Virus record (IMG/VR): IMGVR_UViG_3300050011_000546
Location: 1-51,303 of that record
Reading direction: 5' to 3' (one strand)
Origin: a virus
Lineage: Duplodnaviria > Caudoviricetes
Length of the DNA stretch: 51,303 nucleotides
Shown here: positions 3,097 through 23,728 of the stretch, piece by piece
Layout of the letters: each line of letters opens with the position of its first letter
Numbering within the stretch: position 1 is the stretch's first letter
Translations under genes and position numbers: made by a program
The notes under the pieces: generated by a model
What the model was told of the DNA's origin: nothing
The model's database searches: none
What the model saw: the letters and a program-made list of their open reading frames with translations, nothing else

Positions 3097-3108
3097 TGAT
3101 GCTCCAAG

Positions 3109-3130
3109 AAAAAACCGCCCGAAGGCGGCT
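3109..3130 (-). terminator. Rho-independent terminator-like hairpin upstream of the endolysin
   Basis: Minus strand ccgcc-ttcg-ggcgg followed by a T-tract. Confidence 0.6.
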
Positions 3131-3175
3131 GAAGTAGCTATGCGACGTGGGGTTGTGGTGGTAGAGGTCGCGTCG

Positions 3176-5446: not shown

Positions 5447-6676
5447 TCAACGCCGATAGAGCGGACTGAAGATCGACGGCACAAGCTGCGTGGGATGCTC
5501 AGGGTCGACGCCGGCCAGGGAGCGTATCCAATTGCCGATGCTGCCGCTGGCGAGTGGTGCGTAAGGATTCGAAGGGTCAAAGGGCGGCGGCGGCTTGGTC
5601 GGATCGAACATAGGCGCCTGCGGCTGGTTGCCGTTCAGCTGGCGCTGGTATTGATCGTATTCGTCGGCATAGGGAAGCGCCGAGCCCTGGGAGTTCTGCG
5701 GCTCAGGCGCCGGTGGAGCGGGAATATCGGTCGAACCGCTTGCCGGAGGAAAGCTCCCGCTTCCAAAGCGGTTGTCGAACGTCGCGGAATTATCCGAAAA
5801 ACCCCAGACCGGCGGATCGGTCCATGGCTGTACCGACCTGTCGCTATACTTCTCGAGCGTTCCGCCGGTTTGCGGCGGCTGCACGGATCGCAACGGATTG
5901 GAAGGGTCGATGCCGGCGAGCGGAAACCGCCAGTCCCCGACACCGAGGCCGTTTCCATCGCCGATCTGGCCTGCTGGGTACTGAGCCTGCGGCCGGTAAC
6001 CGAAGTCACTGATCGGCGATGCCCCGTTGCGCGCTACATCTGCGTTGGCATAACCCTTGGAAAAGTTGTCGTAGTTTTGCTGAGAAAGAAAATGAGGCCC
6101 GCTTGTATCAATTGAGTCCCACTTACCACTAGTCAAATATTTAAAGGGTTGTTTAATATAACGGTTTTCCAGGTTCGCCATTCCCCCACCGATCTCCGCC
6201 CACTCCCGTGGTATTCCGGACCAGCGGGTTACGGATCCTAGATGGTAGGAGGCACTACCAACAAACGCTGGAACGACAGAACCCTCCGGAATTCCCCACT
6301 GCGGGTTTCGCTGCAAATCTTGCGAACCGCCTTGGCTGAAAGCATCGATCATCTGCGCCCGCGCTCGCATCGATCCCATGATGCCCGTTGCATCTTTCGG
6401 ATAAACCTGGTTCAGGGTATTTGCGACATCGGCTGCGAAGGCCCGGGCTTGCTGCTCGGTGTAGTTAGCGGGAACGATGAGGTAATTATTTGGATTTGCG
6501 ATCTCTCCCCTCGTCTTATATTTGTCCGAACCATCAGCATAAATATACGCGTTCTGAGAACCACCCGGTGTCGGGTCGACGACAGGCTGACCGTTAAGCG
6601 TGATAAATTTGGCTGGGACATAACCCGTAAATTTTCGGTCTTTCTCGGAGCCAACATAAAATATTCGGTCTGACAT
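5447..6676 (-). CDS. Class A cargo: divergent Ntox44-like N-terminal domain plus IFSPLYRR tail
   Basis: GGSQDLQR...ASYHLG...SGIP domain; ends WIRSLAGVDPEHPTQLVPSIFSPLYRR. Confidence 0.65.
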   Translation of the reverse strand: MSDRIFYVGSEKDRKFTGYVPAKFITLNGQPVVDPTPGGSQNAYIYADGSDKYKTRGEIANPNNYLIVPANYTEQQARAFAADVANTLNQVYPKDATGIMGSMRARAQMIDAFSQGGSQDLQRNPQWGIPEGSVVPAFVGSASYHLGSVTRWSGIPREWAEIGGGMANLENRYIKQPFKYLTSGKWDSIDTSGPHFLSQQNYDNFSKGYANADVARNGASPISDFGYRPQAQYPAGQIGDGNGLGVGDWRFPLAGIDPSNPLRSVQPPQTGGTLEKYSDRSVQPWTDPPVWGFSDNSATFDNRFGSGSFPPASGSTDIPAPPAPEPQNSQGSALPYADEYDQYQRQLNGNQPQAPMFDPTKPPPPFDPSNPYAPLASGSIGNWIRSLAGVDPEHPTQLVPSIFSPLYRR

Positions 6677-6778
6677 TTTGTGTCCCCTCTCCTAAGAAAT
6701 AGCTGTAATGATAGTGGTGCTAATCGTCGAGCAATCAACGTTTAATAAATGCAATCTGCTTGGGATGAGAATTGTGGT

Positions 6779-7339
6779 TTAGCCGCCTTGCAATTCATCA
6801 ATGCGGACGCCGATGACGTAAAAGTCTCCGAAAATATGCGAGGCGCGGCCTTCAGATTCAATGTATACGTCGGGCGAAGAAAGCATCCCCATGGCGCTTT
6901 TCCAACCCTGCGTTCTCTGAGCTGGTGGTAAAACAAACTGCCCTGTTGTGTCGTAGATAACAGTGTCCCAGGTAATATCCGAAGTTGGAACGCCTTGGCA
7001 CTCACCGACCTGCTGCTTCTTGCCGTCTTCCACAAATGTGACCAGCCTGCATTGGGCCAGATACTTTTCGATTGGCGAGGCGTGGATACGAAATCCCGTC
7101 GATTGAAGCCATTGGCCTGGCTGGTGCAGCAAGATAATGACAAAGGCAACGCAAAAAATCGCGAGCGTATTCCACTTTCTTCTGATCAACGCCAACAGGG
7201 CGCAGACAAATAAGATGTTGATGCATCCAACGCAAACCAAGAACGACCAATCCGAAAAGCCGGGAACGTACATGAGCAGTTGGTGGGTCACCCAGCTTAC
7301 GAGCGTCGCCGCGACCAAAAGATATTTTAGCAACTTCAT
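6779..7339 (-). CDS. Putative membrane immunity protein, paralog 1 (YDTTG family)
   Basis: About 3 TM helices then CRLxxFVExG, YDTTG, GxFY; directly upstream of the class A cargo. Confidence 0.65.
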   Translation of the reverse strand: MKLLKYLLVAATLVSWVTHQLLMYVPGFSDWSFLVCVGCINILFVCALLALIRRKWNTLAIFCVAFVIILLHQPGQWLQSTGFRIHASPIEKYLAQCRLVTFVEDGKKQQVGECQGVPTSDITWDTVIYDTTGQFVLPPAQRTQGWKSAMGMLSSPDVYIESEGRASHIFGDFYVIGVRIDELQGG

Positions 7340-7535
7340 GGTGACCATCCAGCGAAAACCGACGACCGGGCCGTTACCACAAACAGGCGGTTTTCTGATT
7401 ATTGGTCGGCTCGTTGCATTCTTTTCTGCGTTCCGTGAGGACTTTTCGTGCACCTCCCCGTTACCTGTTGCAGATAATTTCAGGATATTTTGCGCGGGAG
7501 CGATGGGACCGGCGTGGCGCGCGCGTCAGCGCCGC

Positions 7536-7790
7536 GCATCCTACCATTTTGGCTATGTGACTCGTCTAGCCGGTGTACCAAGGGAGCTGGCGGAGCGGGG
7601 TGGAGGAGCATACAATTGGCTCAACGCTCATTTTTGGCAACCTCTGCAAGAATGGCACGAGAATGGTTCCCGTCTTGATTCGGTCCGAACCGTCAGCATA
7701 GATATAGGTATCCTGAGATACCTCCCGGTGTCGGGTCCACGACAGGCTTGCCGTTGATTGTGAGGAATTTTGCGGGCAACGCAATCTGCC
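7536..7790. pseudogene. Scrambled remnant of a paralog of the 5447-6676 toxin
   Basis: 7671-7790 matches 6512-6630 (YIYADGSD) in the same orientation; 7536-7665 encodes ASYHFGYVTRLAGVPRELAERGGG on the opposite strand. Confidence 0.75.
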
Positions 7791-7810
7791 AACAGCGAAG
7801 CTAGAGAGAC

Positions 7811-8395
7811 CTAGTGGGCGCTGTCCCCGTCAAATTCCGTTGCAAGAATGCCGACCCTGTAAAAATTTCCAGAAAGATGAATTGCGCGGTCTTCCGAGTC
7901 TCTGAGCACCCCTTTCGGAGGATAATGCCACATCGCGTCCTTCCACTCAGGTGTTCTCTCGCGCAAGGGCAAAACGAGCTCTCCCGTTGTATCGTAGAAT
8001 ACAACGTAAGAGACGAGGGCATCTCCGGAGTCTTCACAAACTCCGACCGTTTGCTTGACGTCCTTCTCAACAAATTCTGTCAATCGGCATCGGGCCAAAT
8101 ATTCTTGAATTGGCGAGGTATGGATGCGGAAGCCCAGTACATGAACCCAGTACAATTGCCTTGTAATTCCAAGATAGGGAAGAGAAACCACGAGCCACGC
8201 GGCAGCGAAAATCGCTAGTGCCCTCCATCGGAACCGAAACAAGGCGTCTACAGAAAAAAATAACAGAGGAATCCAACAGGCGAAGCCTATCCAGAGAAGC
8301 CAAACGAAAACAGTTGGAAGGAGGTAATAAAAAAAATGCGCGGCGTACTGACTTATCGGAGCGAAGAGGGCCAGGATATACTTTGGCGACGTCAT
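7811..8395 (-). CDS. Putative membrane immunity protein, paralog 2 (orphan)
   Basis: MTSPKYIL; CRLTEFVEK; FYDTTGEL; GNFY. Confidence 0.65.
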   Translation of the reverse strand: MTSPKYILALFAPISQYAAHFFYYLLPTVFVWLLWIGFACWIPLLFFSVDALFRFRWRALAIFAAAWLVVSLPYLGITRQLYWVHVLGFRIHTSPIQEYLARCRLTEFVEKDVKQTVGVCEDSGDALVSYVVFYDTTGELVLPLRERTPEWKDAMWHYPPKGVLRDSEDRAIHLSGNFYRVGILATEFDGDSAH

Positions 8396-9060
8396 GAGAG
8401 ACATCCAGCAAAACGGGGCCACTGGCTCGCTAGTACGAAGCAGGCTGCGCGAATTTTCTCCGTTCCATGAGGATTTTTCGTGCACTTACGACTACCTGTC
8501 GCCGGTAATTTCAGGATATTTTGTGCAGGCGCGATGGGACCGGCGTGGCGTGCGCCTCAGTGCCGCGTTCTTTGCGGCCAGTTCGATCAGCTTCCGTTAT
8601 GATTGGAGAATTCAAAGGCGCCAAATAGCGCTTTTCAATCGTAGCCAATTCTGCACCTCCTGGGCTCATTACTTTTTGTAGATATCGTCAAGCAAGCACG
8701 GTCGGGGCGACCGAAGACGCGCCCGGAATTGGTCCGGGATTATTGCAAGACTTGCCGCCAGTTCACGACTCTGTGGGTGTCTTCAAAGTCACTTCACGTC
8801 CAAAAACTGAAGATATAAAACGCCGAGCAATGGATTTTGAATAAATTCATTCCCCTTCCGTCTTCGTCCTTCGAAAACATGAAGCCGAATCAAGGAGTCT
8901 CTTGCATTGCGACGAACTGTGTGGTTGCCATCGAAGAAATAGCAGCAAGCTGGCCGTCCCTTATTTCCGTAGACGTGAACATGAACCTCGTCGGCTGTAG
9001 CGCTAATCGCCAAGCCATCATCGTTGCAGGCGGTGAAACCCCTGCGAACGGTGAAGAATA

Positions 9061-9642
9061 TTAGCCGCCGTCAAATTCGTCGTGATCAATGCTCACTCTG
9101 TAAAAATCCCCAGAAAGGCGCTCTGCGCGACCTTCCGAATCCCTTAGCACCTTTTTCGGAGAGTAATCATACATCGCGTCCTTCCACTCCGGCGTTCGCT
9201 GGGACACAGGTAATGCGATCTCTCCGGTCGTGTCATAGAATACGATATAAGCAGTGCTCTCATACACTACGCCCCAGTCTTCACATGAGCCGACTGTTTG
9301 TTTGACGCCCTTCTCTACAAACTCAGTCAACCGGCATCCGGACAGATACTCTTTCGCCGGGAATGCGTGGATGCGGAATCCCTGCCTACGAAGCCAGCTG
9401 AATGGCTCCGTGACTTCGAGAAAGGAGAGAGTAACCGCGACCCACGCGACGACAAAAATCGCTACCGCCTTCCATCGCCGCCGAAACAAGGCGCTCAAAG
9501 AGAAGAAAAACATCGGAAAGCAGCAGGCCAATCCTATCCACGGAAGCCGGGCTGCTAAGGTTGGCATAAGGTAAGTTAGAAATGCCGACGCATACCAACT
9601 CCCCGCGGCAAAAATAGCCAAAAGATACTTTGGTCGTGTCAT
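9061..9642 (-). CDS. Putative membrane immunity protein, paralog 3 (orphan)
   Basis: MTRPKYLL; CRLTEFVEKG; FYDTTGEI; GDFY. Confidence 0.65.
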   Translation of the reverse strand: MTRPKYLLAIFAAGSWYASAFLTYLMPTLAARLPWIGLACCFPMFFFSLSALFRRRWKAVAIFVVAWVAVTLSFLEVTEPFSWLRRQGFRIHAFPAKEYLSGCRLTEFVEKGVKQTVGSCEDWGVVYESTAYIVFYDTTGEIALPVSQRTPEWKDAMYDYSPKKVLRDSEGRAERLSGDFYRVSIDHDEFDGG

Positions 9643-9696
9643 TGAGGCATCCAGCGAAGCGTGGCTCGGCGATCTGCTTGCGATGAGAATTGTGTT

Positions 9697-10271
9697 TTAG
9701 CCGCCCTGATCTTCGTCAATGCGAATAACGATGGAGTAGAATTGTCCGACAATGTGCGATCCGCGCCCCTCGGATTCAGCGAACACCTTTGGCGAAGAAA
9801 GCATTCCCATGGCGTTCTTCCACGCTTGTGTTCTCCGCGCCAGCGGCAACATAAACTGTCCCGTCGTATCGTAGATCACGACCTCCCAGGTGATGCCCGA
9901 TGTCGCAAGGCCTTGGCATTCGCCGACCTGCTGCTGCGCGCCGTCTTCCACAAACGTGATAAGTCTGCATCTGGATAGATATTCTTCAATTGGCCAAGCG
10001 TGTAAGTGAAATCCTGTCGCAACAAGCCATCGACTTGGCTGTGTGACGCCCAATCCAGGAAGACAAATGACCAGCAGGGTGAGAGAAAAGATTGCGAACG
10101 TATTCCACTTTTTCTAAACAACGCCGATAGGGCACAGACAAGCACCGCAAAGCTGCATCCAAATCCGAAATAAAAAGACCACTCTGAATAACCTGGAACA
10201 TATTCCAACAGGAGTTCGGCAACCCAGCTAACGAGCGTGACGGCGACCAAAAGATATTTTAGAAACCTCAT
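9697..10271 (-). pseudogene. Immunity paralog 4, frameshifted
   Basis: MRFLKYLL start and YDTTG C-terminal half lie in different frames; shift near 10110. Confidence 0.7.
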
Positions 10272-10469
10272 TGCAAGCATCCAGCAAGGGCTGACGATCG
10301 AGCTGTTACCACAGGCAGGAAGCTTTCCGATTATTGGGCCGCCGGTCGCATCCCTTTTCTCCGTTCCGTGAGGACTTTTCGTGCGCCTCCTGGGTACCTG
10401 TTGCAGATAATTTCAAGATATTTTGTGCAGGCGCGATGGGACCGGCGTGGCGTGCGCGTCAGCGCCGCG

Positions 10470-11437: not shown

Positions 11438-12622
11438 CTACCCTTTTGCATTGGCGCGCCGCTGTGCGGCGAGCAAGGCCTGCGCGTCCCTGAGACTGCC
11501 GGTGCGGTCGAGTTTCGCGGTCAGCGCGCTGATGGTGGCCGCATTGGCGGATGTCCGGGAGGCAGCGACGCCGGGCCGCTGCACCGGCGGCACATCCCTG
11601 GCCGCGGCTTTCGACGCGGTCTTCTGCGCCAGCCGGTATTTTCCGGCGTCGTACATCATCTTTTGAAAATGGGCATTGCGCATCAGGGGATCGCTGTGGA
11701 ACAGCCGCATGAACTCGGCACGTTCGACACCGGCCTCTCTGGCGCCGGCCATAATTTCATTCGCCACCGCACGCTGGGTCTGTTTGCTTTCGCCCTTCAG
11801 CATGGTGTCGAGACGCACGTCTTCCGCTTTTGCAAAGCTTTCGAATTGCTGCCGGGCCGCCGCGGTCTGGTGCTGCTGCTGCTGTTGCTGCGCCGCCTGC
11901 AGCTGCGCCACCCGATCGAGCGCCGCCATCGCCTTGCTAAATCGCTCCGGTTGCCGCTGCGCCATCATCTCGAGCGCCGGCTGCAATTGCTGCAGCGGCA
12001 CCCCGGCAAGCTCCGGAAAGTTTTCCAGGAAACTGGCGCGGGCAAAATCATGGGCGACGCCAAGCGCCTCGGCGTAGGATTTTCGCGTGGTCTCCGCGGC
12101 GCCGAGGCGCTGTTCGATGGCCTGGACCACCTGCGGATGCTTCAGTGCTTCCTCGAGTTTCGAGTCGAATTTGCCATTCGCGGCGGTTTCCGCCGCGGGC
12201 TTTTCGTTCGCATCCCGTGCTGGTTTGGCTTCCGGCTTGGCCGGGTCGTTTTCCGGATCGTCCGCGTCATTCTTCGGGATGTGATTGCCGCGCAGCCTGT
12301 CCAGCTCATCCCTGAATTGCGCAGCGGCCTCTTCGCGCGCCGCGTCGCTCTCATCGTTGCGCAACGCCGTCAGATCGCGCGCACCGCGTTCCAGCGTGAT
12401 GGCTTCGGCGCCATCGGCCGCCTCGTCATCTCGGTCGACATAATTCCGCGCGATCGTCGGCGCCGGCTCGCCGCGTTGGGCGCTTAATTCAGCAGCGGCG
12501 TCCCGCGCGCGCTCAAACCCGCTTTCCTTCTTTTTAGCGAGCGGGTCCGGCATCTCGGCGAAGCCGCCGCTTGCGAGATCGGCGGCGCGGCCGGTCGGAA
12601 TGTTTTCATCGGCTTCCGTCAT
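11438..12622 (-). CDS. Scaffolding-protein-like protein
   Basis: Acidic N-terminus, long helical coiled coil, C-terminal PPVQRPGVA...ISALTAKLDRTGSLRDAQALLAAQRR. Confidence 0.6.
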   Translation of the reverse strand: MTEADENIPTGRAADLASGGFAEMPDPLAKKKESGFERARDAAAELSAQRGEPAPTIARNYVDRDDEAADGAEAITLERGARDLTALRNDESDAAREEAAAQFRDELDRLRGNHIPKNDADDPENDPAKPEAKPARDANEKPAAETAANGKFDSKLEEALKHPQVVQAIEQRLGAAETTRKSYAEALGVAHDFARASFLENFPELAGVPLQQLQPALEMMAQRQPERFSKAMAALDRVAQLQAAQQQQQQHQTAAARQQFESFAKAEDVRLDTMLKGESKQTQRAVANEIMAGAREAGVERAEFMRLFHSDPLMRNAHFQKMMYDAGKYRLAQKTASKAAARDVPPVQRPGVAASRTSANAATISALTAKLDRTGSLRDAQALLAAQRRANAKG

Positions 12623-12813
12623 AGGCGTCTCCCGACCAGCCGTCGCAACGGCTTTTTCGCTGCCGACGCATCAATCATTGCAGGATACCGATATTTGTCC
12701 AGGTTCAATGAAGCTGCGATTTCGTTCACCTTCGCCTGCTGCTGTTCCGGCGAGAGCTTCAGAAAGCTGTCGTCAACGGTGACGGTCTGGCCATCGATTT
12801 CAAGCGTTGCCAT
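12619..12813 (-). CDS. Small protein resembling the N-terminus of a large virion ejection protein
   Basis: MATLEIDGQTVTVDDSFLKLSPEQQQAKVNEIAASL; ends RRLVGRRL. Confidence 0.5.
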   Translation of the reverse strand: MATLEIDGQTVTVDDSFLKLSPEQQQAKVNEIAASLNLDKYRYPAMIDASAAKKPLRRLVGRRL

Positions 12814-13619
12814 TATTTGATGCTCCAGGGTGGGACACTAGGTTTGAGGCTCCAGGGCACGTTGACTCTGGTCCTGCGCGAGACAGTGGCCGGCGGTAGC
12901 GCGGCATAACCGGGCGGCCTACCATTGGCCGACTGGCGCGCCAGCGCTTGCGCCATCAGTGGATTTCCAGCCAGGGGATCGGTCGCCGCGCTGGTAGCAT
13001 CCTGATCGCCGCCGAGAATGGATTTCAGTGCTGCGAACCGGGCTTGCGAAATTTGCGACGGATCGGTGGTCCGCTGTCCCGAGCCAAGACCGGTAATGCC
13101 GTTGGCAATCGCGGCTATGGGGTTACCGACCGGCGTATGGGCCCAGTTTTGAAAGCCGGCACTCAAGCGGTCGCCGATAGCCGGTGTTGGTGAAGGCGTT
13201 TGCGGGGGCGCAACACCAGCAGGATCGGTGCGCTGTCCCGAGCCAAGGCCGGCAATGCCATTGGCAATCGCCGCCATGGGATTACCGACCGGGGTATGGG
13301 CCCAGTTTTGCAAGCCGGCGCTCAGGCGATCACCAAGATCCGGCGTTTGCTGCACCGGCTGCGGAACATCCGCCCTTCCGAATTGCGGCATCTGATAGCC
13401 GCCGACAGCGATGTTTTGCGTCTGCCCGTAGTCCGGCGTCTGCGGAAGTGAGGGCGTTGTTGCGGTCAAGGGTGTCTGCGGAACGGAGGGTGTCTGATCA
13501 AATCCCGGACCCGGCTGATACTGCCCTTGCTCCTGCTGCAGCGAGAGCAACCGGCCAAGCAAGCCGCCGCTCTGGTCCGAAAAAGTCTGCGGATCAAAAT
13601 AGCTGTCGAAGAGACCCAT
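12813..13619 (-). CDS. Class C protein (MGLFD/GGLLGRL), internal-virion-like, with an internal tandem repeat
   Basis: N-terminus nearly identical to 14339-15217; two copies of GDRLSAGxQNWAHTPVGNPxAAIANGIxGLGSGQRT. Confidence 0.6.
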   Translation of the reverse strand: MGLFDSYFDPQTFSDQSGGLLGRLLSLQQEQGQYQPGPGFDQTPSVPQTPLTATTPSLPQTPDYGQTQNIAVGGYQMPQFGRADVPQPVQQTPDLGDRLSAGLQNWAHTPVGNPMAAIANGIAGLGSGQRTDPAGVAPPQTPSPTPAIGDRLSAGFQNWAHTPVGNPIAAIANGITGLGSGQRTTDPSQISQARFAALKSILGGDQDATSAATDPLAGNPLMAQALARQSANGRPPGYAALPPATVSRRTRVNVPWSLKPSVPPWSIK

Positions 13620-14051: not shown

Positions 14052-14339
14052 CTAGTCTGAGTGTGAAGAATATGTCTCTGTCTTGGCAATGATCTCATTG
14101 ACGGCACGGTCAACGGCCAACTTTCCCTTCGCTTCGAAATCGTAATCCGCCATGAAAGTGTGCGCATTGGCGTATTCAAGAGCAAATAAAGCATCAGCAA
14201 GCTCGCGGCTCAAGGCGGTGTCCTCTATGACAGCCAAAAGACCCTCAACCTTATGAATGAGCGTCTGCAGGGACATAAGGCCGTCCTGATAATCCCTGGC
14301 CGCGCCCGTGATAAGACTAATTTGATAAGCTACGTCCAT
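14052..14339 (-). CDS. Putative cognate immunity protein (cytoplasmic, acidic, helical)
   Basis: Start overlaps the stop of the toxin-bearing ORF; lower GC. Confidence 0.65.
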   Translation of the reverse strand: MDVAYQISLITGAARDYQDGLMSLQTLIHKVEGLLAVIEDTALSRELADALFALEYANAHTFMADYDFEAKGKLAVDRAVNEIIAKTETYSSHSD

Positions 14340-15217
14340 TATCGCTCGACCGTTATTACTGTTATAACCTGACCATCAGCGCCGGTCACGACTTTCACTC
14401 CGTTCGTTCCGATGTGTTCGGTTTCGCCAGGCGCATTGCCAGGGCTGGTTTGACCATTTTGTATGGTTTCTTCGACCGCTGACGGGGTAATACCTCGCCC
14501 CTGCATCTGGTCAGCGGCATGGCCGGTGTAGACACGACCGCCAATAGTGGTCGGCTGATTTGTACCTCGTTTTACGTCAATCGGGTTGCCTCTTCGACCA
14601 ATCGGCGTGCTCGCCGGCTTGTCGCCTGAATCCGAGGAATTATCCTGACTTTTCAGGATGATCGCGCCGAGGCCGCCCCCCAGCACCGCCCCACCCAAGA
14701 TCGCTTGGCCTGCCGTCAGCCCTGCACCCACGGCGCATCCCGCTGGCCCCGCGGCACAAAGCCCCATGGCGCCTTGAGCGTATTGCGAGCCAGGCCTGAC
14801 CGGGTCTGGAGACGCGTCGGAGACAGCGGGCTGTTCGTAGCCGGCCGACATGGCGTCGCCAAGATTGCCGGGCTGTTGCTGGTTCGCCAGCGCTTGCGCG
14901 ATCAGCGTTTTTCCCATTTCGGGATTGACGGTCGCAATCATCGCGTTGTGATCGCCGAGAATTGGCAGCAGCGCGGCGTATTGTGATTTCAGATCTTGTA
15001 TACCCATCGGTGGGACAGCTGACGGCTGCACTTTGTTCAGCAACATCGGCGACGGCATTGACAGGGCCGCCGGCGCTTGCGCAACGGAAGACGCCCGATC
15101 GAAGCCCGTGCCGGGCAGATATTGCCCCTGCTCCTGCTGCAGGGAGCGCAGCCGGCCAAGCAAGCCGCCGCTGTCCCGGAACTGGTCCGGATCAAAATAT
15201 CCGTCGAACAGGCCCAT
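14339..15217 (-). CDS. Class C cargo with C-terminal DUF4258/BECR-like RNase toxin domain
   Basis: PIGRRG...YTGHAADQMQGRGITPSAVEETIQNG...VITV is typical of Rhs toxin tips; TGATG-coupled to the ejection protein. Confidence 0.7.
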   Translation of the reverse strand: MGLFDGYFDPDQFRDSGGLLGRLRSLQQEQGQYLPGTGFDRASSVAQAPAALSMPSPMLLNKVQPSAVPPMGIQDLKSQYAALLPILGDHNAMIATVNPEMGKTLIAQALANQQQPGNLGDAMSAGYEQPAVSDASPDPVRPGSQYAQGAMGLCAAGPAGCAVGAGLTAGQAILGGAVLGGGLGAIILKSQDNSSDSGDKPASTPIGRRGNPIDVKRGTNQPTTIGGRVYTGHAADQMQGRGITPSAVEETIQNGQTSPGNAPGETEHIGTNGVKVVTGADGQVITVITVER

Positions 15218-16287
15218 CAGCCGGCTTGATTTATTCTGCGGGATGCTTCGGTGGCGGCGTGATAGTTCACGGCTTTGTAGCCGTTGATTTCGATCACTGC
15301 ATTGGGGGTCGTTTTCTCCACGTCCTGCGCCATGAGTCCGATGTGATAGGCTGGCGCGCCCTTGTAGCGATAGCCGTAGACCGGCGTGCCGTCGAACAGC
15401 GTTCCAACCGGCTCGATATCCTGCTTCAGGCGCATATCGGAAGGCATGAATTTGGCGAGACTGCCAAGGCCTCCGGCGATCTGCGCGAACTGCTGCGCAC
15501 CTGACTCCGTCTGCGTGCCCTGGGATTGGCCGGTGGACTGAGACCCGAGGCCCGCGATCGGCACCCCGATCTGCGCCAGCAGCCCGAGATTTTGCGCCGG
15601 AATGCTCTGCGTCAGCTGGGCGAGCGCCAGTTGCTGCTGTGGGGTATAATTCTGCGCGTTGAGCGCATCCTGCGATGAGGTGACGCCCTGCTGTTGATTG
15701 GCGAGACCCTGCTGGTTAAGGCCCGACAGCAATCCGCTTGTCGAGTTCTGCGCACCGTAAAGCGAATTCGCGGCACTCAACTGATTGGCAACATCCTGAT
15801 TGTATTGCCCGGCGATGACAGGGGCTTCGCCCTGCGCAATACCCCGCGCCAGCGTCTGCTGGTTCATGCCGGACATATCCCGGCCCGCCGCGGCGAATTG
15901 GCCGTTGACCTGGTTTGTCGTGTCGCTCGCAATCTGCGCCAGCTGGGCCTGAAGCGCAGGATTGTTTCCGATCATGCTGCCGTTGGCATAGGGCGTGAGC
16001 TGGCTCTGCAGCGTTGAAAGACCAGTTTGGAGATTGGGAGCCTGCTGAGCCGCTCCGCCCCCGTTTAATAGATTGCCGGCAAAGCTGCTGATCTGGCTCG
16101 CATAGGGATTGCCCTGCGCGGCATTCTGCGAAAGCTGGTTGATCGCGCCGCTCTCAGTCGGATTCAACCCGCTGCTCTGGATCAGGGGGTTGAGCTGTCC
16201 GAGAATGCCGGAAAGATCCGGCTGTGCCGCCGCCCACGGCACCGTGGTCGACTGCTGGGTTTGCGATGTCGTTGACGTACCGCCCAT
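15217..16287 (-). CDS. DNA-transfer/ejection-type virion protein with C-terminal peptidase S74 chaperone domain
   Basis: MGG...T/Q/G/N-rich body; SDMRLKQDI...YRYKG...IGLMAQDVE. Confidence 0.75.
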   Translation of the reverse strand: MGGTSTTSQTQQSTTVPWAAAQPDLSGILGQLNPLIQSSGLNPTESGAINQLSQNAAQGNPYASQISSFAGNLLNGGGAAQQAPNLQTGLSTLQSQLTPYANGSMIGNNPALQAQLAQIASDTTNQVNGQFAAAGRDMSGMNQQTLARGIAQGEAPVIAGQYNQDVANQLSAANSLYGAQNSTSGLLSGLNQQGLANQQQGVTSSQDALNAQNYTPQQQLALAQLTQSIPAQNLGLLAQIGVPIAGLGSQSTGQSQGTQTESGAQQFAQIAGGLGSLAKFMPSDMRLKQDIEPVGTLFDGTPVYGYRYKGAPAYHIGLMAQDVEKTTPNAVIEINGYKAVNYHAATEASRRINQAG

Positions 16288-16511: not shown

Positions 16512-17238
16512 TCATTGATCGTCGGATTGTTCGGAAAGAATTCTCGCAACTAACGATCGGATCGGACGGCGAGCCTGCGAAGATTGCATATCGTCCCAAG
16601 CTTCTGGCGTTTGTCCGTTACTCTCTGCCATCGGTTGAACTTGGTTCTGCTGCATTTGTAGCGCGAGCAGCCTGCCGAGCAAGCCGCCCTGCAGACGATA
16701 TTCGGGTGCGCCGTTCAGAGTAGAAACGGAATCGATGGCCGGCTGAAACCGGCCCTGCTGAGACAGCATGCTGAGCCTGCCGAGTAAGCCGCCGCCAGGT
16801 TCGTCTGTCGCCTGGCCTGAGAGATTCTTCGTTACAATAAAGGAGCGGTCGTACGGGGACTCAAAATAGCCCGGCTCATCATAAGGGTTTCCCCTCGGGG
16901 GATCCACCTCATGCAGTGGACGTTCAGGCGGCGGAAAGGGATTTTCATTTCTCGGAGGTGAAAGCGATGGCGGAAGCCACGTGGGTAGCGCGCGTGGAAT
17001 ATCCTTCGAACTTGGTGCTGCAGGAATTGGTGGATCCCATATATGAAGATACAGGCAGCTGTTGCTGCGGCTGATTTTGCGGCGGATTGCCAAATGTATT
17101 TGGACTTTCCGGAGGTGGGATCCACCAAGGGAGGCGCGGAGGAGGTGGAGTTGGTGGTTTCCGGAAATCGGGTATTGTCGAATCCCGCAATTGCGAATTA
17201 GGTGATTCAGGGAAATAGTCTCTGAAGGAATAGGCCAC
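16512..17238 (-). pseudogene. Proline-rich class C protein, frameshifted; paralog of 22053-22595
   Basis: HEVDPPRGNPY.EPG.FE.PYDRSFIVT and two GGLLGRL motifs; N-terminus in a different frame (shift near 17050). Confidence 0.6.
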
Positions 17239-17379
17239 GTGTTTGCTCTCCAATAGGTCTATCGTTTGACGTGCAGCTCGTTTGATTAGGTTGCTTTGAT
17301 TCAATTCTTCGAGCTCTGTGCGACGAGCAGTATTGCTCCAGGATTCGTGCCCGCGAAGCCTCAGGCGCTTGAGAGCCCA

Positions 17380-18282
17380 TTACGGATCGTAGATCACGTG
17401 GGGCAGAGACAGCTTCGACACCATGGCATCGAGCTCGGCCTGGTTATTTGGATACGCTTCATAAACGATCTCCGTCTTGAGCGAGCTGGCGTAATACCTC
17501 GGATTCCAAGTCCACAAAACGTCCGGATATGTGCCCGTCCCCTCAAACATGCTTCTTAATTTTTTTCTGATGATGAAACTTTCCGGAGGGTCGTCGAACC
17601 AGGGATCGATGGCCCTACCGCTGTAAAATTTGTAATTCAGATACCGACGATATTTGTCTCCATCCTGAACCTCAGGCGGAGCATCGGAGCATGGCGATTT
17701 CTCCAGGCGTTTGGGGCTATCATCTCTCGACACGACCAGTGACGGACACCAGAACGGATCGACCGTATAGTGCCATGCGACTACGGTGTCCTTCAGCACA
17801 AAGGTCTTCGTTGATGCCAGAAGGACGTAACTGGCACAGGCGGAAAAGCAATAATCGTAGACGACGACGGTTGCACGACGGTCTCGCAGCAAATCGGCGA
17901 GCGTGATAGCAACGGCTATATCGCCACCGGGGCTTCGAACCACGAAAAGACCTCCTTCTTCAAGGTCGTTAGCTAGCGAAACATCCTGTTTGGCAAAAAT
18001 CTGACCGTCAAAACACAAGACCCGCTTGTCGAGATCGAGTGCCATGGGACGCTTCACATTGCCGCGACAAAATTCGACGGCGCGAGCATAAACGCTGAAG
18101 TCGGGCTGTTGGGCGCGCGAAGTCTCCGGGTCCCAGCAAACAAGGAATGATGCGCTCAGCGCTGCAAAATTTGCGACGCGGAAAATGAAAGAGCGTCGAC
18201 GGCTAAAGCTAGCACGATAAAACGTATTCGCTCCACACTCAGCGGCGCTAAGCTTCAAGCGTGACATGTTCCACGTCCACAC
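17380..18282 (-). CDS. Exported ClpP/crotonase-fold-like protein, paralog 1 (start uncertain)
   Basis: VVRSPGGD, YDYCFSACASY, VAWH; signal-like segment. Confidence 0.6.
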   Translation of the reverse strand: MWTWNMSRLKLSAAECGANTFYRASFSRRRSFIFRVANFAALSASFLVCWDPETSRAQQPDFSVYARAVEFCRGNVKRPMALDLDKRVLCFDGQIFAKQDVSLANDLEEGGLFVVRSPGGDIAVAITLADLLRDRRATVVVYDYCFSACASYVLLASTKTFVLKDTVVAWHYTVDPFWCPSLVVSRDDSPKRLEKSPCSDAPPEVQDGDKYRRYLNYKFYSGRAIDPWFDDPPESFIIRKKLRSMFEGTGTYPDVLWTWNPRYYASSLKTEIVYEAYPNNQAELDAMVSKLSLPHVIYDP

Positions 18283-18348
18283 TTCGCTACAAAGACGCCA
18301 TCGTGTTAGCGTAGGTCACGATTTGAGCGATCACGGGCAGCTTGACGA

Positions 18349-18753
18349 CTAAGTCGATTTCCGGAGGCCTAGCCGCCGCCTGGAGAGCTGCCTTTCTTTC
18401 TTTTTGATCTCAGCGTCGAGGATTTTGCATAGTTTCCGATGAAACTCGAGTCCGTGGCAAAAAGGCAGGTATCTCGGAAAAACAACTTCGTGCGGCACAA
18501 CATCTGAACTAATACTTTTTAGTCGATCGAGTGACTTTCGAATTACGGTACTCGCAATCGTCAGCGCTTGAAGTCCGTCGACACCGCGCGCCAAACGAAT
18601 CCGATTATCCTTCAGGCCATGGGTTTCAAACGCACACGACCATTCGCGATCCCCTTCCCGCAAACGTGGAAATCCCAAGCGAGCCAGCCCCGGGCGCTGT
18701 TTCACACCAAATCGGAACTCATATTCCACCAGAGAAGGCTCACTCCATTTCAC
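18349..18753 (-). CDS. Hypothetical protein (DUF6968-like, possible immunity)
   Basis: WSCAFE...GVDGLQAL motif. Confidence 0.5.
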   Translation of the reverse strand: MKWSEPSLVEYEFRFGVKQRPGLARLGFPRLREGDREWSCAFETHGLKDNRIRLARGVDGLQALTIASTVIRKSLDRLKSISSDVVPHEVVFPRYLPFCHGLEFHRKLCKILDAEIKKKERQLSRRRLGLRKST

Positions 18754-18860
18754 TTGGCTACTCCGGTTTTTCCTTCAGCCAAAAAAAGACCAACGTGGTC
18801 ATTTTCCCTCGGCCAGCGCGCCATCTCGGAGCCGCTTGCGAGCAATATGCAGCGAGGTCA

Positions 18861-19517
18861 TCATCCCATGTCGTCGGGAGGTTCATATTCCGGAGGCTCG
18901 TTCGATCTGGTATCACCTGCTCGCTTCGGGCGGAACTCATTATATCGGGCAACAACGTCATCTGAAATAAGTCCTGGTGGTGCACGATCAACAAAGTCAC
19001 GCTCGCGTCCGACATCAGGAACGTCCTTCATCATTTGCAGAGACATGATTTCTTCAAGGACCCGCGACAGCGCTTCACCGCGACCCAGCTGCAAAAGTAT
19101 CCGTGCCTTGACACCAAGTGCCTCTCTTCGGAAAAAGCCAGTGCGATGGGCTCTGCGCAGAGCCAGATCGATACATTTCAACGCTTCTTCGGGATCATCC
19201 AAAAAATCGAGATACTGTGTTGCCTTTCCGATCGGGAAACGAACATCGTCAGGAAACTGCTCGATCATCTCGTCTTGAATCTGCAGAGCTTCGCGATCCC
19301 TTTCGGCTTCAGACAGAAGCCATACAAGATTTAGAGCTAAATCATAGCGATCTTTGCCACTCTCCGCGCGCATCCGCGCTGATACGGCGTCAATCACCAG
19401 ATTAAGCGGAAAGTCCTGGCGTAGCTCTTTGATCCATCGATCAAGCTTCACGTATGAATCGACAGACCTGATAACAACCTCCCATCGGTCCGAGTGGAAG
19501 TAATGCCTGCTGAGCAA
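18861..19517 (-). CDS. TPR-like protein, candidate immunity
   Basis: Helical repeats (EEALKCIDLAL, ALGVKARILLQLGRGEAL); downstream of the 19801 cargo. Confidence 0.55.
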   Translation of the reverse strand: MLSRHYFHSDRWEVVIRSVDSYVKLDRWIKELRQDFPLNLVIDAVSARMRAESGKDRYDLALNLVWLLSEAERDREALQIQDEMIEQFPDDVRFPIGKATQYLDFLDDPEEALKCIDLALRRAHRTGFFRREALGVKARILLQLGRGEALSRVLEEIMSLQMMKDVPDVGRERDFVDRAPPGLISDDVVARYNEFRPKRAGDTRSNEPPEYEPPDDMG

Positions 19518-19656
19518 CGAAGACTATCGTTGCGATCTTACGCTTCCGGCCGGAACCGGTAACATGAGCGCGAGTGGCTACGCCGCGCGCCCTCGGCACA
19601 ATTTTTAAGGCGGCCTATTATCGCTCCGACGCAGATTGGCTACCGTCGCCAACTTG

Positions 19657-19671
19657 GAACAAATAGAGAAC
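19657..19671. promoter_or_regulatory. Alphaproteobacterial LexA (SOS) box
   Basis: GAAC-aaataga-GAAC, intergenic, upstream of 18861-19517. Confidence 0.7.
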
Positions 19672-19800
19672 GATGTCAAGATGACTCCGCTTAAAGATCT
19701 GCATCCGTCCCTACGCTGTCGATACGATTGCCAAACCGTTCGCTGCTCGCCGATCCCACTACAAGACCATCGAAAATTGGCTAACTTTGAAGTTAGCCTA

Positions 19801-21222
19801 CTATCGACTCACGTTGATCCATTCGTCCTCGTCACGGGTACTCCATTCTGGCGGTTCAAACCGAGGGATTCGGCCGCCGTTCCGATTGCACAAGTCCCAT
19901 CGACGTATTGCGCGGTTTATGCAAGCTTGCAGCATGCCTTCTGCAGCGTAGTCATCTTCACGTTCATAACACCTCCCTATCTCATCCGATTTTCGCTGCT
20001 CGCACACATCGTCATCATCGCCGCCACCTCTTCCGATAGAATAGGCTTTACGTGATTGTATGCGGGAGGTGTTCCGGCTACGAGGATTAGCCTGCATGTA
20101 GATTGGCGGTAGGGGCGCGGGCGTCATTGGGGGGATCGATATCCCTCGTCCCGGCGATCCCGATTGAACTGCATTCATCGTAGGTGAAGCAGCGAACCAC
20201 TCTGGTAGTGACTTCTCGCCGGAGGGCCCAAAGAATCTACCGCCCGTCATTGGCGGCAAACTCATTGGATTCTGAAGGTTGAGGGTCGCTGCACCGACTT
20301 GGGATGTGGATGGATGCGACATAACACCGGGAAGATCGCCGTTCCCTGCGTCACGGAGCAACTTCATGGCGGAAGGAAAGCGCTCTTCAAGGCCAGCAGC
20401 AATCGGTCGGCTGACACCGTATCCTGCGGCCCCCGCGCTCGCCGGCAGCGAAGGCAAGCCATTGCGCAGCGCGTTGACGAGCGGCCGCGCAAAAATTCCA
20501 CCGGCCGCCGCGGGCGTCGTAGGCGCCAGCAAAGACACGGCATTAAATGCGCCGCTCGGACCGAGTTCACGCGCCTGATTTTGTCTGAATGCTTCCTCTT
20601 CCGTCGAGAGGACGCTCGTCGCGTCGATCGAGCCTTGTACTGCTTGTGCGATTCCGTTCAGCGCGCCTTTGAGCCCCGAAACCATGCCAAAAGGCTGGGG
20701 ATGATCCCAGTAGGCCTGCATGCGACCGGAGAGTGTGCTCGCCGGTTCCGAAGCACGATCAATCGGCGGAGCGGTACGGACTGGGCCGAGCGAGCCATCG
20801 CGTCCAACGAGAGTCCCCACAAGTCGTCTGAAATTCGGATCCGGCGGCTGGGATGGCACCTGTCCGTTGGCTCCCGCAAACGGCTGATATGGGTGCGCTT
20901 GCAGCGCGACCAACCGGCCGAGCAGGCCGCCTTGCGGAGCGCCGTACCCGTCGGAATCAAGCTGGGGGGCGCCGTTTGGAGTCAAACTTGAATCAACAGC
21001 TGGCTGATTGCGGCTCTCCTGCATTCCCCGGAGCGAAATACCGAGCAGACCGCCAACGGGACTATTATCGCTTCCGGGATAGTTCGGGGAAGTAGATTGC
21101 AATTGATCGTCAGGTAACTGGGAAAGACCGGTGTTAGCCGGCGGCCAAAAGCGGTTTGTAGCGGCGCCATCGTCTTGTTGCATTGGCGGATAGATATAAA
21201 CGCGTCGCAGGTTGTCACCCAT
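19801..21222 (-). CDS. Class C cargo with Cys-rich C-terminal domain
   Basis: GGLLGRLVALQ, FRRLVG; C-terminal 4-Cys acidic domain; coupled to the upstream GNAT-like gene. Confidence 0.55.
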   Translation of the reverse strand: MGDNLRRVYIYPPMQQDDGAATNRFWPPANTGLSQLPDDQLQSTSPNYPGSDNSPVGGLLGISLRGMQESRNQPAVDSSLTPNGAPQLDSDGYGAPQGGLLGRLVALQAHPYQPFAGANGQVPSQPPDPNFRRLVGTLVGRDGSLGPVRTAPPIDRASEPASTLSGRMQAYWDHPQPFGMVSGLKGALNGIAQAVQGSIDATSVLSTEEEAFRQNQARELGPSGAFNAVSLLAPTTPAAAGGIFARPLVNALRNGLPSLPASAGAAGYGVSRPIAAGLEERFPSAMKLLRDAGNGDLPGVMSHPSTSQVGAATLNLQNPMSLPPMTGGRFFGPSGEKSLPEWFAASPTMNAVQSGSPGRGISIPPMTPAPLPPIYMQANPRSRNTSRIQSRKAYSIGRGGGDDDDVCEQRKSDEIGRCYEREDDYAAEGMLQACINRAIRRWDLCNRNGGRIPRFEPPEWSTRDEDEWINVSR

Positions 21223-21635
21223 CAGTTCAAATCCTTGTCCATGATGATGTGCTTTTCCTCAAAGCCGTCGAGCATATGCAGCCAGCCCTTGCGCCCGTAG
21301 ATGCGGACGCGCTTGCAGCCCTCGCGCTTGGCGTAAGTCTCGATCTGACCGATCAGCGGCAGCCAACGCTTCATGTCGCTGCCGCCGCATACCGTGATGA
21401 TGCAGACCTTGCCGATCTCGGAATTGATCAGGATGGTCGCTGCCGCGGACTCCACCGTTCGCCCGTTCCAGGCCATCCACAACAGACTGCGGCTGGAAAG
21501 AATATCAGCCTCGATATCCGCAAAGGCGTTGAGTTTGGTCCGATAGCAGGCCGCTTTCAGCAAAGCGCTGACATGCGGCCAAACTTCATGAACCCGATTG
21601 GGATCGACACAGACAAGCTCAGCCGTGGATGGCAT
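21222..21635 (-). CDS. Virion-assembly GNAT-like protein (P22 gp14/T7 gp13 position)
   Basis: CGGSDMKRW...AKREGCKRVRIYGRKGW; lies between nozzle and ejection genes. Confidence 0.65.
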   Translation of the reverse strand: MPSTAELVCVDPNRVHEVWPHVSALLKAACYRTKLNAFADIEADILSSRSLLWMAWNGRTVESAAATILINSEIGKVCIITVCGGSDMKRWLPLIGQIETYAKREGCKRVRIYGRKGWLHMLDGFEEKHIIMDKDLN

Positions 21636-21933
21636 AGAGAAAGGTTCGGCCCGTGGTGGCGGAGTTGGCATGCATAATCGTGAACGACCCGTTCGCCACC
21701 GCGGAGATGTAGATTGTGCCGCTGCCGAATTCCGCCGAAGCGTTGGCGGTGGCCGGCATCAGGATCGGCGTGGATCCGGCGGCGCAATTATTGTCGGATA
21801 CAACGGTTGATGCGGCGCCAGTCGCGAGTGTGACGGTTCCCGTCGCGTTCGATCGTCCCGCCGCCAGTTGCTGGATGGCGAGAACGATCTTCTTCAGGTC
21901 GGTCTCCGTGATGCCGGGAACGTAGGCCGTCAT
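21619..21933 (-). CDS. Small virion structural protein
   Basis: T/A/G-rich; follows the nozzle gene; overlaps the next core gene. Confidence 0.6.
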   Translation of the reverse strand: MTAYVPGITETDLKKIVLAIQQLAAGRSNATGTVTLATGAASTVVSDNNCAAGSTPILMPATANASAEFGSGTIYISAVANGSFTIMHANSATTGRTFLYAIHG

Positions 21934-22052
21934 AGCATGCACTCCTGCCCGCACTCACAAGTCTGCGGTCTATTGTTCGCGGCACTCCATCTCCGCGTCG
22001 CGAGAAGCGGATTGCAATTAGTCGCGAGATAGATCGGAAAGAATTCCCGTAG

Positions 22053-22595
22053 CTAACGCTCGAACCGAGCGACGAGCCTGCGGGATGGCACAACGTCGGG
22101 CGTTTGCGGAGGCCGTCCGTTGCTTTCCGGCTGAACCTGGCTCTGCTGCATCTGCAGCGCAAGCAGCCTTCCGAGCAAGCCGCCGTGCAGGCTTCCGGAT
22201 GTTTCGGGATGATATTCAGATGCGCCGTCCGGAATAGAAGCGGAACCGGCAGCCGGTTGAATCTGCCGTTCCAGCATCAGCGCATTCAGCCTGCCAAGCA
22301 AGCCGCCGCTAGGCTCGTCTCCTGTCTGGCGAGAGAGATTATTCGTTACAATGAACGATCGGTCGTACGGGTGCTCAAAGCAACCCGGCTCATTATAAGG
22401 ATTGCCCCTCGGAGGATCCACTTCATGCGGTGGTTTCGGCGGATCACCAAAGGGATTGTCAGGATTTGCGGGTGGAACGACTGGTGGATTGTCCGTCCAT
22501 GCAGGACGACGGCGTATCAAGCGTTCGGGTATTTCAGTTCCCATTGTTGCCAAACGAGGCCATCGGTAAAGATCATCTCTGAAAAAAGAAACCAT
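22053..22595 (-). CDS. Proline-rich class C protein
   Basis: Two GGLLGRL motifs; ends SRRLVARFER. Confidence 0.55.
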   Translation of the reverse strand: MVSFFRDDLYRWPRLATMGTEIPERLIRRRPAWTDNPPVVPPANPDNPFGDPPKPPHEVDPPRGNPYNEPGCFEHPYDRSFIVTNNLSRQTGDEPSGGLLGRLNALMLERQIQPAAGSASIPDGASEYHPETSGSLHGGLLGRLLALQMQQSQVQPESNGRPPQTPDVVPSRRLVARFER

Positions 22596-22729
22596 GTGCT
22601 TTCCCCGTGGCAGGTTAGAAGAACGCCGCGCAACGCATTCGCTGGGAGCGCTAACAAACTATGACAGGCGCGAAACATTCCTGTTTCGGCGTCAATGGAT
22701 GTCCCTGTTAAATCTAATTTTTGGAATAG

Positions 22730-23728
22730 TTACGGATCGTAGACGACTTGGTAGCGCAAGTGCAGGCGCACCGCGATCGCGTCTACCTCACTCTGACTGT
22801 TTGGGTATGCCTCATAAACAATTTTCGTTTTAATCATGCTTGCATGATATCTCGGGTTCCAGGTCCACATGACATTTGGATATTCGCCTGTCCCCTTGAA
22901 AATATTTTTCAGAGTTCTTCTAACAGTGAAGCTCTCTGGAGGAAATTCAAAAAGAGGATCAACAAACCTTTCCCCATAAAATCGCTCTTTGAGTCTTTCC
23001 AATTCTTCGGATTCGCTTCTAAATTCAAAGGGAGGATTGGGGCACAACCCCACCTCTAGACGGAGTGGGCCCCCGTCTTTCGCCCTCGCAAATCCGGAAC
23101 AATCATTTGAGCCGGCGCCAAAGTGACGCCACGCAACGAGGGCGTCCCTCAGGATGAAGGTTCTCGACGATGCGACAAGGAGGTAGCTAGCGCAGGCAAA
23201 CAAGCAGTAATCGTAAACGACGACGGTTGCGCGCCGGTCTCGGAGCAAATCGGCCAGGGCGATGGCACTGACCACGTCATTGCCGAAACTTCGAATTACG
23301 AAAAGACTTTCTTCTTCGAGATCCTTGCCTAACGAGATATCCTGTCCAGAGGATATCTCGCCATCAAAACACAAAACCCTCTTATCTTTCGCGAGTGCCA
23401 TGGGACGGTTCACATTGCCGCGGCAAAATTCAACCGCACGAGCGTAAAGACCGAAGTCGGGCTGCTCGGCGCAGGAAGCTTCCGGTCCACAACAAACAAG
23501 GAATAATGCGCTCAGAGCTGCAACTTTTGCGATGCGGAAAATGAAAGAGCGAGGACCGAATGATACCAGGCTCAGGCGCTCGCCTGTGGGCGCGCCATGG
23601 GAACGCTGACGAGTGGCGTGAGCGAGATGAACCGTATCCCCTTGACGTTCACCCCGGCCGAACTTCCGGCGTAACATGTTCAATGCCCGCATTTCGCTAC
23701 AAAGACACGCTAAGTACTTATAGAACAA
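22730..23728 (-). CDS. Exported ClpP/crotonase-fold-like protein, paralog 2 (true start probably downstream of 23720)
   Basis: Clear paralog of 17380-18282 (YARAVEFCRGNV, YDYCLFACASY, WTWNPRY). Confidence 0.6.
   Translation of the reverse strand: MFYKYLACLCSEMRALNMLRRKFGRGERQGDTVHLAHATRQRSHGAPTGERLSLVSFGPRSFIFRIAKVAALSALFLVCCGPEASCAEQPDFGLYARAVEFCRGNVNRPMALAKDKRVLCFDGEISSGQDISLGKDLEEESLFVIRSFGNDVVSAIALADLLRDRRATVVVYDYCLFACASYLLVASSRTFILRDALVAWRHFGAGSNDCSGFARAKDGGPLRLEVGLCPNPPFEFRSESEELERLKERFYGERFVDPLFEFPPESFTVRRTLKNIFKGTGEYPNVMWTWNPRYHASMIKTKIVYEAYPNSQSEVDAIAVRLHLRYQVVYDP

Follow-up and report, generated by a model that had tools for sequence, protein, structure and literature searches.

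The window analysed here is 51,303 nucleotides long (positions 1 to 51,303 of the IMG/VR record IMGVR_UViG_3300050011_000546) and contains a podophage head, tail and lysis gene cluster that runs from the terminase to the lysis genes (66 open reading frames (ORFs); Pfam, PHROG). Our analysis suggests that this cluster probably builds short-tailed, host-owned particles of podophage descent, which would eject polymorphic toxins into competitors. The product of the gene at 14339-15217, termed MGLFD toxin after its first residues, would be one such cargo, with a predicted RNase tip. Use as a toxin-loaded particle is likely, since no integrase was found in the vicinity and two probable DNA-injection proteins are reduced to stubs.

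The MGLFD toxin gene and its neighbours

The toxin gene is the middle one of three overlapping genes:

15217-16287, minus strand: ejection protein 1 with a C-terminal S74 domain, 356 amino acids (aa), first gene of the ejection block (PHROG 4287, PF13884)
14834-15217, minus strand: MGLFD N-terminal region of the toxin gene, about residues 1-128, a probable piece of phage ejection protein 2
14648-14833, minus strand: Gly/Ala-rich hydrophobic hairpin with the pattern C-x-x-x-P-x-x-C, about residues 129-190, candidate inner-membrane entry segment
14339-14620, minus strand: toxin tip, residues 200-292, DUF4258/Ntox49, predicted colicin-like BECR RNase fold (Pfam and model)
14052-14339, minus strand: likely cognate immunity protein, 95 aa (acidic; linkage to the tip)

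A preliminary description of this DNA had reported that an S74-bearing ejection gene, an MGLFD protein with an HAxxxMxxRGI motif and a small acidic ORF are chained by overlaps, and this is exactly what we found. The TGA of the ejection gene shares bases with the ATG of the toxin gene (TGATG), and the TAA of the latter with the ATG of the small gene (TAATG); the toxin gene encodes a protein of 292 aa, which begins with MGLFD and contains HAADQMQGRGI. Such stop/start overlaps are frequent across the cluster and thus not diagnostic by themselves: the same type couples the gene at 12813-13619 to that at 12619-12813 and also joins ejection genes 2 and 3 of ppBeUSDA76-2 (OP596614), the closest isolated phage. 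From 0.64 in the N-terminal part of the toxin gene, the GC content drops to 0.55 for the tip and to 0.50 for the small gene; the flanking core genes have 0.61-0.65.

The product of 15217-16287 matches the PHROG 4287 "DNA ejection protein" (E 7e-23), contains Peptidase_S74 (PF13884) at residues 283-331 and is 50% identical to the protein in the same slot of ppBeUSDA76-2. By analogy to T7 gp14 and P22 gp7 it is likely an outer-membrane pore. The S74 gene had been proposed to couple the toxin to ejection, but the link is rather the toxin's own N-terminus, a piece of ejection protein 2 as judged by sequence. A role of S74 in toxin processing was likewise rejected: many related elements have no S74, the toxin-free phage has it, and it does not covary with the toxin.

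The hairpin has hydropathy peaks of 1.68 and 1.34 and occurs in 22 of 64 MGLFD-like proteins. Residues 129-288, comprising hairpin and tip, share 69% identity with the C-terminal end of the Rhs protein P0016, showing that hairpin and tip move as one unit. The earlier comparison of the tip with Rhs tips was therefore correct; the identical tip type is borne by Rhs and PT-HINT proteins, which belong to unrelated delivery systems.

The tip is a predicted RNase

DUF4258 covers residues 230-290 of the 292-aa protein with 25.6 bits (Pfam cut-off 25) and was found on 30 of the 34 aligned tips, the scores being 25.6 and 29.2 bits against the same cut-off. An AlphaFold model of the tip built from 34 sequences (pLDDT 80) consists of two helices followed by a beta-meander. 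With Foldseek, the top match of this model is CdiA-CT of E. coli NC101 (E 4e-4), with colicin D next; VIA-align also ranks CdiA-CT NC101 before the other BECR RNases (Z 7.6, root-mean-square deviation 3.1, 74 aligned residues). The DUF4258/BECR assignment suggested before is thus upheld. H233 is conserved in 33 of 34 tips and D236, Q239, R241 and T286 in all 34, so that the pattern of DUF4258/Ntox49, with His and Arg near the first helix (H233, R241) and Thr in the last strand (T286), is present.

CdiA-CT NC101 is described as an EF-Tu-dependent tRNase that requires Arg200 and His248 (PMC5737660), and DUF4258 has been grouped with Ntox49 in the colicin-like BECR group, of which the tested members are reported to be mostly tRNA cutters (10.64898/2026.08.28.747851, a 2026 preprint). 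On the basis of the model, the tip is predicted to be an RNase. It would cut RNA, most likely tRNA by analogy to the colicin-like BECR group. By classification, the tip adds a new member to an established RNase group and is combined with an immunity family that has no name. When solved structures were searched by sequence with the tip or with profiles of the immunity protein, no meaningful match came up, and the tip was found in none of 50,697 phage records.

The 95-aa partner protein

The small gene encodes an acidic protein (isoelectric point 4.5, net charge -9) with no hydrophobic segment above 1.25 and neither a signal nor a membrane segment; its model is a four-helix bundle (pLDDT 94). 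The tip was located at 15 metagenome loci, from which two short spurious matches and one match ending at a contig edge were removed. In 11 of the remaining 12 loci (about seven of them independent), a homologue of the 95-aa protein begins at most 10 bases from the tip stop. The twelfth locus is an Rhs gene with another partner, perhaps remotely related. This ORF behind the Rhs-borne tip (L048) scored within the shuffles against the close-family profile and reached 32.8 bits against a widened profile, the rows of which had been recruited with that ORF in the seed; it is only a probable remote member of the family by sequence and was excluded from the 11 of 12. Tandem tip-partner arrays were seen in L049-L052.

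Taken together, the gene linkage suggests that the 95-aa protein is likely the cognate, cytoplasmic immunity protein. Of the RNase-like toxin and immunity pair proposed before, the polymorphic tip, the dedicated downstream partner and the location in the ejection-2 gene slot stand, and both functions are predictions from sequence and model. The 95-aa protein matched no Pfam family, and immunity fold searches returned generic helical proteins or four-helix bundles only. For colicin D-type immunity (PF09204, ImmD) there was an atlas lead at 0.83 only, and Pfam gave no match. Complex prediction for tip and 95-aa protein scored 0.24 (mark 0.32), a value that speaks neither for nor against the pair. 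The protein also seeds a family of helical proteins of about 100 aa with 188 representatives at E <=0.001, and none of 72 scanned reaches a Pfam cut-off.

MGLFD proteins carry exchangeable tips and start like ejection protein 2

Among 95 homologues of the whole toxin, 60 match in the N-terminus only, 23 in the tip only, 10 at both ends and two at neither. The 64 MGLFD-like proteins fall into at least eight tip groups besides tip-less forms; among the tips are an HNH nuclease and one that resembles a nucleotidyltransferase. In a strain with about 97% identity, about 1.9 kb of extra DNA lie behind the immunity gene, with another MGLFD start. The proteins therefore show the features of polymorphic toxins: a conserved trafficking region with exchangeable tips, a cognate gene downstream, orphan tip/immunity arrays and a tip common to unrelated systems.

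Profiles of two conserved MGLFD blocks placed phage ejection-2 proteins at the top among 2,179 frames (E 4e-4 and 1.5e-6). In every one of the seven genomes that gave a match, MGLFD lies directly behind ejection gene 1, and none of the 19 genomes (of 36) that lack ejection gene 1 has it. From these sequence data the MGLFD start appears to be the start of phage ejection protein 2, and the N-terminus is likely a signal for capsid loading and ejection.

Two further genes of the ejection block follow the toxin unit:

12813-13619, minus strand: second MGLFD gene without recognised tip, a probable truncated remnant of ancestral ejection protein 2
12619-12813, minus strand: ejection protein 3 stub, 64 aa (match to the start of a third-slot protein)

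The first of these lies 432 bp past the small gene and had been regarded as a toxin-less MGLFD paralog. There is indeed a second MGLFD gene, but the best interpretation is a truncated form of the ancestral ejection-2 gene: residues 2-230 share 30% identity with the N-terminal portion of the phage's 496-aa protein, and short forms like it are also present in L005 and L006. Over residues 1-38 the stub shares 60% identity with the beginning of the 552-aa third-slot structural protein of Rhizobium phage RHph_N3_2. Of phage ejection protein 2, the 296 C-terminal aa were found neither in the window nor in any of four element genomes, and the remainder of protein 3 was likewise found in neither, except for residues 19-159 in one cargo gene of one of the four genomes; a lysogen used as positive control matched. 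No large ORF in the ejection slot is left unexplained. Thus, the cluster does not contain three full-length ejection proteins.

Proteins of the gp14/gp15/gp16 type are described as a trio that makes up a pore in the outer membrane, a tunnel across the periplasm and a part in the inner membrane (PMC8954989), and by order and size ejection genes 1-3 of ppBeUSDA76-2 probably encode such a trio. Cytoplasmic delivery had been taken as implied by the toxin-immunity pair. It is an inference: the parts with which the phage forms its tunnel into the cytoplasm were not found, and entry into the cytoplasm would therefore need another route.

Three related loci show other states of the ejection block. A single gene in L007 (L007:11116-12111) has a start resembling ejection protein 2 and an end that by eye resembles phage virion lysozyme, as if the middle had been deleted. 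A decayed remnant, ejection gene 1 with a stop-broken MGLFD start, is located at G208:C55:176149-177368 in a genome without capsid match. Furthermore, a genome without terminase match has, at G172:C1:4572972-4590944 (L039, L040), a related cluster that includes portal, capsid and a homologue of ejection protein 3.

Related copies of the cluster form a vertically inherited locus in Bradyrhizobium

Relatives of the cluster are found in Bradyrhizobium species and soil metagenome-assembled genomes, with capsid, adaptor and nozzle about 70-90% identical. Among the sequencing runs listed as containing this DNA none is of RNA, and those that contain its full share are peat metagenomes, from which the window may stem. 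Close capsid proteins are encoded by the cultured species B. betae, B. amphicarpaeae, B. oligotrophicum, B. pachyrhizi and B. jicamae. In eight of 12 loci caiB comes after the cluster; in two it is the next host gene along, and in the other two a different gene. All five fully read elements have the order terminase, GNAT, caiB with no phage early genes inside; in these five a tyrosine integrase was not found up to about 0.5 Mb away, nor a serine recombinase up to 140 kb away. Among the 66 ORFs of the window, no integrase and no early or replication gene was found (Pfam, PHROG).

For comparison with the host phylogeny, 22 genomes were searched for the terminase large subunit (TerL) and rpoB; two without TerL, one with partial rpoB and three with prophage-type TerL were left out, and for G237, which has two terminases, the closer one was taken. 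TerL of the window falls into the clade of the element. Tree distances of TerL and rpoB in the 16 genomes are correlated (Mantel 0.60, p=0.0002), a value that falls to 0.16 once the three prophage-type TerL join. Four of seven supported TerL splits recur in rpoB and none conflicts. The ratio of nonsynonymous to synonymous substitutions (dN/dS) of TerL is 0.055-0.14 in eight pairs, showing purifying selection. The cluster is thus host-owned and vertically inherited at one chromosomal place in related Bradyrhizobium genomes. The earlier view of a phage cassette does not agree with the related copies, which behave as a fixed, vertically inherited host locus (caiB neighbour, rpoB congruence, no integrase).

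A phage-type regulatory cassette encoding a repressor with helix-turn-helix and S24 peptidase domains, GcrA and DUF6456 (L037:14973-16921, G005) is located about 10-25 kb before the terminase in G002, G005 and G227 and is also present in G001; it is a candidate for a DNA-damage switch of the element.

Core and cargo genes of the window

The remaining virion, lysis and border genes are:

51001-51303, minus strand: likely terminase small subunit, element start (first cluster gene in relatives; weak match to the gene before the phage terminase; name inferred)
44768-46054, minus strand: terminase large subunit (PF04466, PHROG 3717)
38697-40951, minus strand: portal in two genes, 40376-40951 and 38697-40376 (PF23899 on both)
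29511-30473, minus strand: major capsid protein (PF17236, E 9e-98)
27782-28432, minus strand: head-tail adaptor (PF24175)
23777-25252, minus strand: likely tail nozzle (PHROG 3287 virion structural protein; name from slot and size)
11438-12622, minus strand: head scaffolding protein, relocated behind the ejection block (PHROG 3927, E 4e-5; the matching phage gene precedes the capsid gene)
4017-5006, minus strand: tail-collar fibre protein (PF07484)
1-3237, minus strand: likely lysis genes and terminal GNAT gene, element end (order conserved in relatives; GNAT by Pfam; lysis suggested by one weak spanin match)

A reading of the split portal as decay was dropped, the portal being equally split in the active phage. 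In the relatives G004, G005, G299 and G322, cassettes of up to about 6 kb lie between the portal halves. Sheath or tube families were not found among the 66 ORFs (Pfam, PHROG).

About 12 cargo-like genes with partner genes break up the cluster; they show four recurrent motifs, none of which is ever present on the opposite strand. Besides the MGLFD genes these are:

46092-50190, minus strand: two PLYRR-class cassettes with a variable N-terminal domain (Ntox44 in 47927-49567) and the common C-terminal PLYRR, each behind a partner gene with hydrophobic segments
41156-44536, minus strand: two further PLYRR-class cassettes, with an M23 peptidase (42518-43546) and a frame-broken Tlde1-like domain (41156-42002), each behind a partner gene
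33019-38701, minus strand: three cargo genes with an N-terminal repeated LVPVD motif, partner genes downstream
16512-23728, minus strand: three GGLLG-motif cargo genes (19801-21222, 22053-22595 and the broken 16512-17304) with partner genes, amid core genes
5447-10280, minus strand: PLYRR-class cargo gene (5447-6676), preceded by four related membrane proteins in an array that resembles orphan immunity genes

The profile of the LVPVD motif matches the start of the third-slot protein of phage Pam5, a target that was picked after an earlier result. That the PLYRR tail derives from the end of phage virion lysozyme was an idea by eye only, and the profile search gave no match. Short copies of the terminase-small/terminase-large junction and of PLYRR are located at cassette borders (46092-46110, 47829-47956, 51023). 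Since such copies recur at the borders, cassettes may have been added via duplication of adjacent core-gene ends. A cargo gene in L014 (L014:9042-9908) contains a wall-hydrolase-like domain, which is 67% identical to the virion protein of the intact L018 prophage. A low-GC HicA/HicB toxin-antitoxin pair (31517-32343) is inserted before the capsid gene. The only long ORF on the plus strand, 2981-4024, has a low GC content and lies between the fibre and lysis genes; by motif we take it to resemble a SAM-dependent methyltransferase.

A toxin-ejecting particle and its alternatives

A toxin-ejecting particle might work as follows. In induced cells heads would be assembled and filled with DNA, and the cells would lyse. 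Cargo would enter the head via its N-terminal pieces, which homology suggests were taken from phage ejection proteins. After binding of the fibre, ejection protein 1 would open the outer membrane and let the cargo into the periplasm; DNA delivery would be inefficient, since proteins 2 and 3 have lost their tunnel-forming remainder. Wall-acting cargo (M23, Tlde1-like), with its membrane-linked partners, would act in the periplasm. The MGLFD toxin would cross the inner membrane via the hydrophobic hairpin that it has in common with the Rhs toxin, and the tip, as its fold predicts, would then cut RNA, most likely tRNA. Kin would be protected by the cytoplasmic 95-aa protein, as the gene linkage suggests.

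Several observations weigh against this interpretation. Particle, toxicity, rescue and loading are predicted from genes alone, and a diverged or host-supplied tunnel is beyond the reach of a sequence search. The fold scores of the tip are only moderate (Z 7.6), and its last strand contains no His to match the catalytic His248 of CdiA-CT NC101. Only six of 15 genomes with the element's ejection gene 1 have the MGLFD start, which is thus dispensable. The reading frame is broken in several cassettes, the MGLFD toxin gene carries a 1-base insertion on one contig from a close strain, and the profile of the PLYRR motif matched no phage protein. The position of the window next to caiB is inferred from relatives; a sixth element (G227) is truncated and that of G001 is rearranged. 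The capsid gene is present with at least 82% identity in only 15 of 151 sampled genomes of the genus (any match in 26), so losses are frequent. Finally, the terminase is kept under purifying selection, as a gene transfer agent (GTA) would also need.

The main rival is such a podovirus-like GTA, moving host DNA, with toxin cassettes riding along or arming a minority of particles. It owes this rank to the conserved terminase and to a podovirus-like DNA-packing particle known in Faecalibacterium, FpGTA, which is described as likely of this type (PMC12946183). The head and packaging genes are host-owned and vertically inherited without replication genes, as in a GTA; terminase, portal and capsid are intact and under purifying selection, and no replication or integrase genes are present. 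Podovirus-like particles of B. japonicum S06B have been reported to contain DNA mapping evenly over the host genome (10.1101/2022.05.06.490963), although a tie to the element is conjectural. We nevertheless regard a GTA as unlikely. The DNA-tunnel parts of ejection proteins 2 and 3 (of the T7/P22 type; PMC8954989) were not found, the single L007 gene passes from a protein 2-like start to what by eye is a lysozyme-like end, and DNA transfer leaves a dozen variable cassettes with their partners unexplained.

It might also be that the particle genes were domesticated for other ends (decoy, PBSX-like cargo-free killing or lysis), the cassettes being addiction or abortive modules in the producer or an immunity archive. 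Broken cassettes are numerous, orphan partner arrays are present, the MGLFD slot is dispensable and the HicAB pair lies in the cluster, all of which would suit modules acting in the producer. But the tips form fusions with fragments of virion ejection proteins, and PADLOC matched none of the 12 proteins tested. In addition, the M23 cargo lacks a signal-like start and hydrophobic segments are present in its neighbours, which fits an attack from outside; we consider action in the producer quite improbable. A decaying prophage that gathered toxin cassettes by chance is very improbable and largely refuted by the tree and dN/dS data. The record is classed as a provirus, the core proteins are 50-80% identical to those of an active temperate podophage, presence is patchy and some copies are truncated; however, one host neighbour is kept across distant clades, TerL is congruent with rpoB, dN/dS is about 0.1, the core genes are intact and there is no integrase.

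The chances are about even that Bradyrhizobium has turned a podophage into a new class of toxin-delivery machine, a capsid weapon in which the DNA tunnel is discarded, DNA packaging perhaps serves as pressure source and many exchangeable toxins are loaded by short ejection-protein signals. In the open-access literature searched, we found no description of the element or of toxins fused to podophage ejection proteins. Ejection of polymorphic toxins from a head with a short tail would be a delivery route distinct from long-tail weapons, and a new antagonism system would be added to an abundant soil and root-nodule genus. The natural fusions also map the ends of podophage ejection proteins that are sufficient for loading and ejection, a poorly understood matter. 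The idea is directly testable, since named cultured species carry close capsid proteins.

Comparison with known systems

Delivery of toxins by the capsid has been proposed for MuF proteins (PMC3482391, PMC5576092). There, too, a tip is fused to an internal virion protein and the immunity gene lies downstream. Here, however, a MuF domain is missing (Phage_Mu_F gave no six-frame match, with the control positive in five of 14 genomes) and the carriers are pieces of podophage ejection proteins. MuF toxins are described in the same sources as belonging to mobile, mostly siphoviral prophages, whereas here about 12 cassettes of several architectures are located in a fixed host cluster.

Phage ppBeUSDA76-2 shares with the window core virion proteins that are 50-80% identical, the gene order, the split portal and the S74 domain on ejection protein 1. 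In contrast to the cluster, it encodes an integrase, recombination functions and further early genes, has ejection proteins 2 (496 aa) and 3 (561 aa) in full, followed by a lysozyme, and shows no cargo motifs. Its particles are reported to have been seen by transmission electron microscopy (10.1101/2022.05.06.490963).

CdiA-CT NC101 and the colicin-like BECR toxins resemble the tip in structure, CdiA-CT NC101 being the best match, in the Q-x-R spacing (compare Gln198/Arg200) and in having a four-helix immunity protein. Identity is about 20%, the tip has its conserved His in the first helix, and its last strand contains a Thr where NC101 has the catalytic His, as judged by motif and not by residue-level superposition. 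A sequence link between the 95-aa protein and the NC101 immunity protein was not found.

With GTAs (FpGTA, PMC12946183) and PBSX the cluster has in common host-owned head, packaging, tail and lysis genes, lack of replication and integration functions, and vertical inheritance; the word toxin is absent from the main text on FpGTA (PMC12946183). The cluster differs from both in its Gram-negative podophage type, in the erosion of its ejection proteins and in its many toxin-immunity cassettes. Known domesticated phage weapons derive from long tails. Tailocins, extracellular contractile injection systems (eCIS/PVC) and type VI secretion systems (T6SS) are of such origin and work without a capsid, and they likewise use domesticated phage parts as weapons, with polymorphic cargo and immunity genes. 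In the cluster described here, by contrast, capsid, portal and terminase are present, and cargo would leave the head through a short tail.

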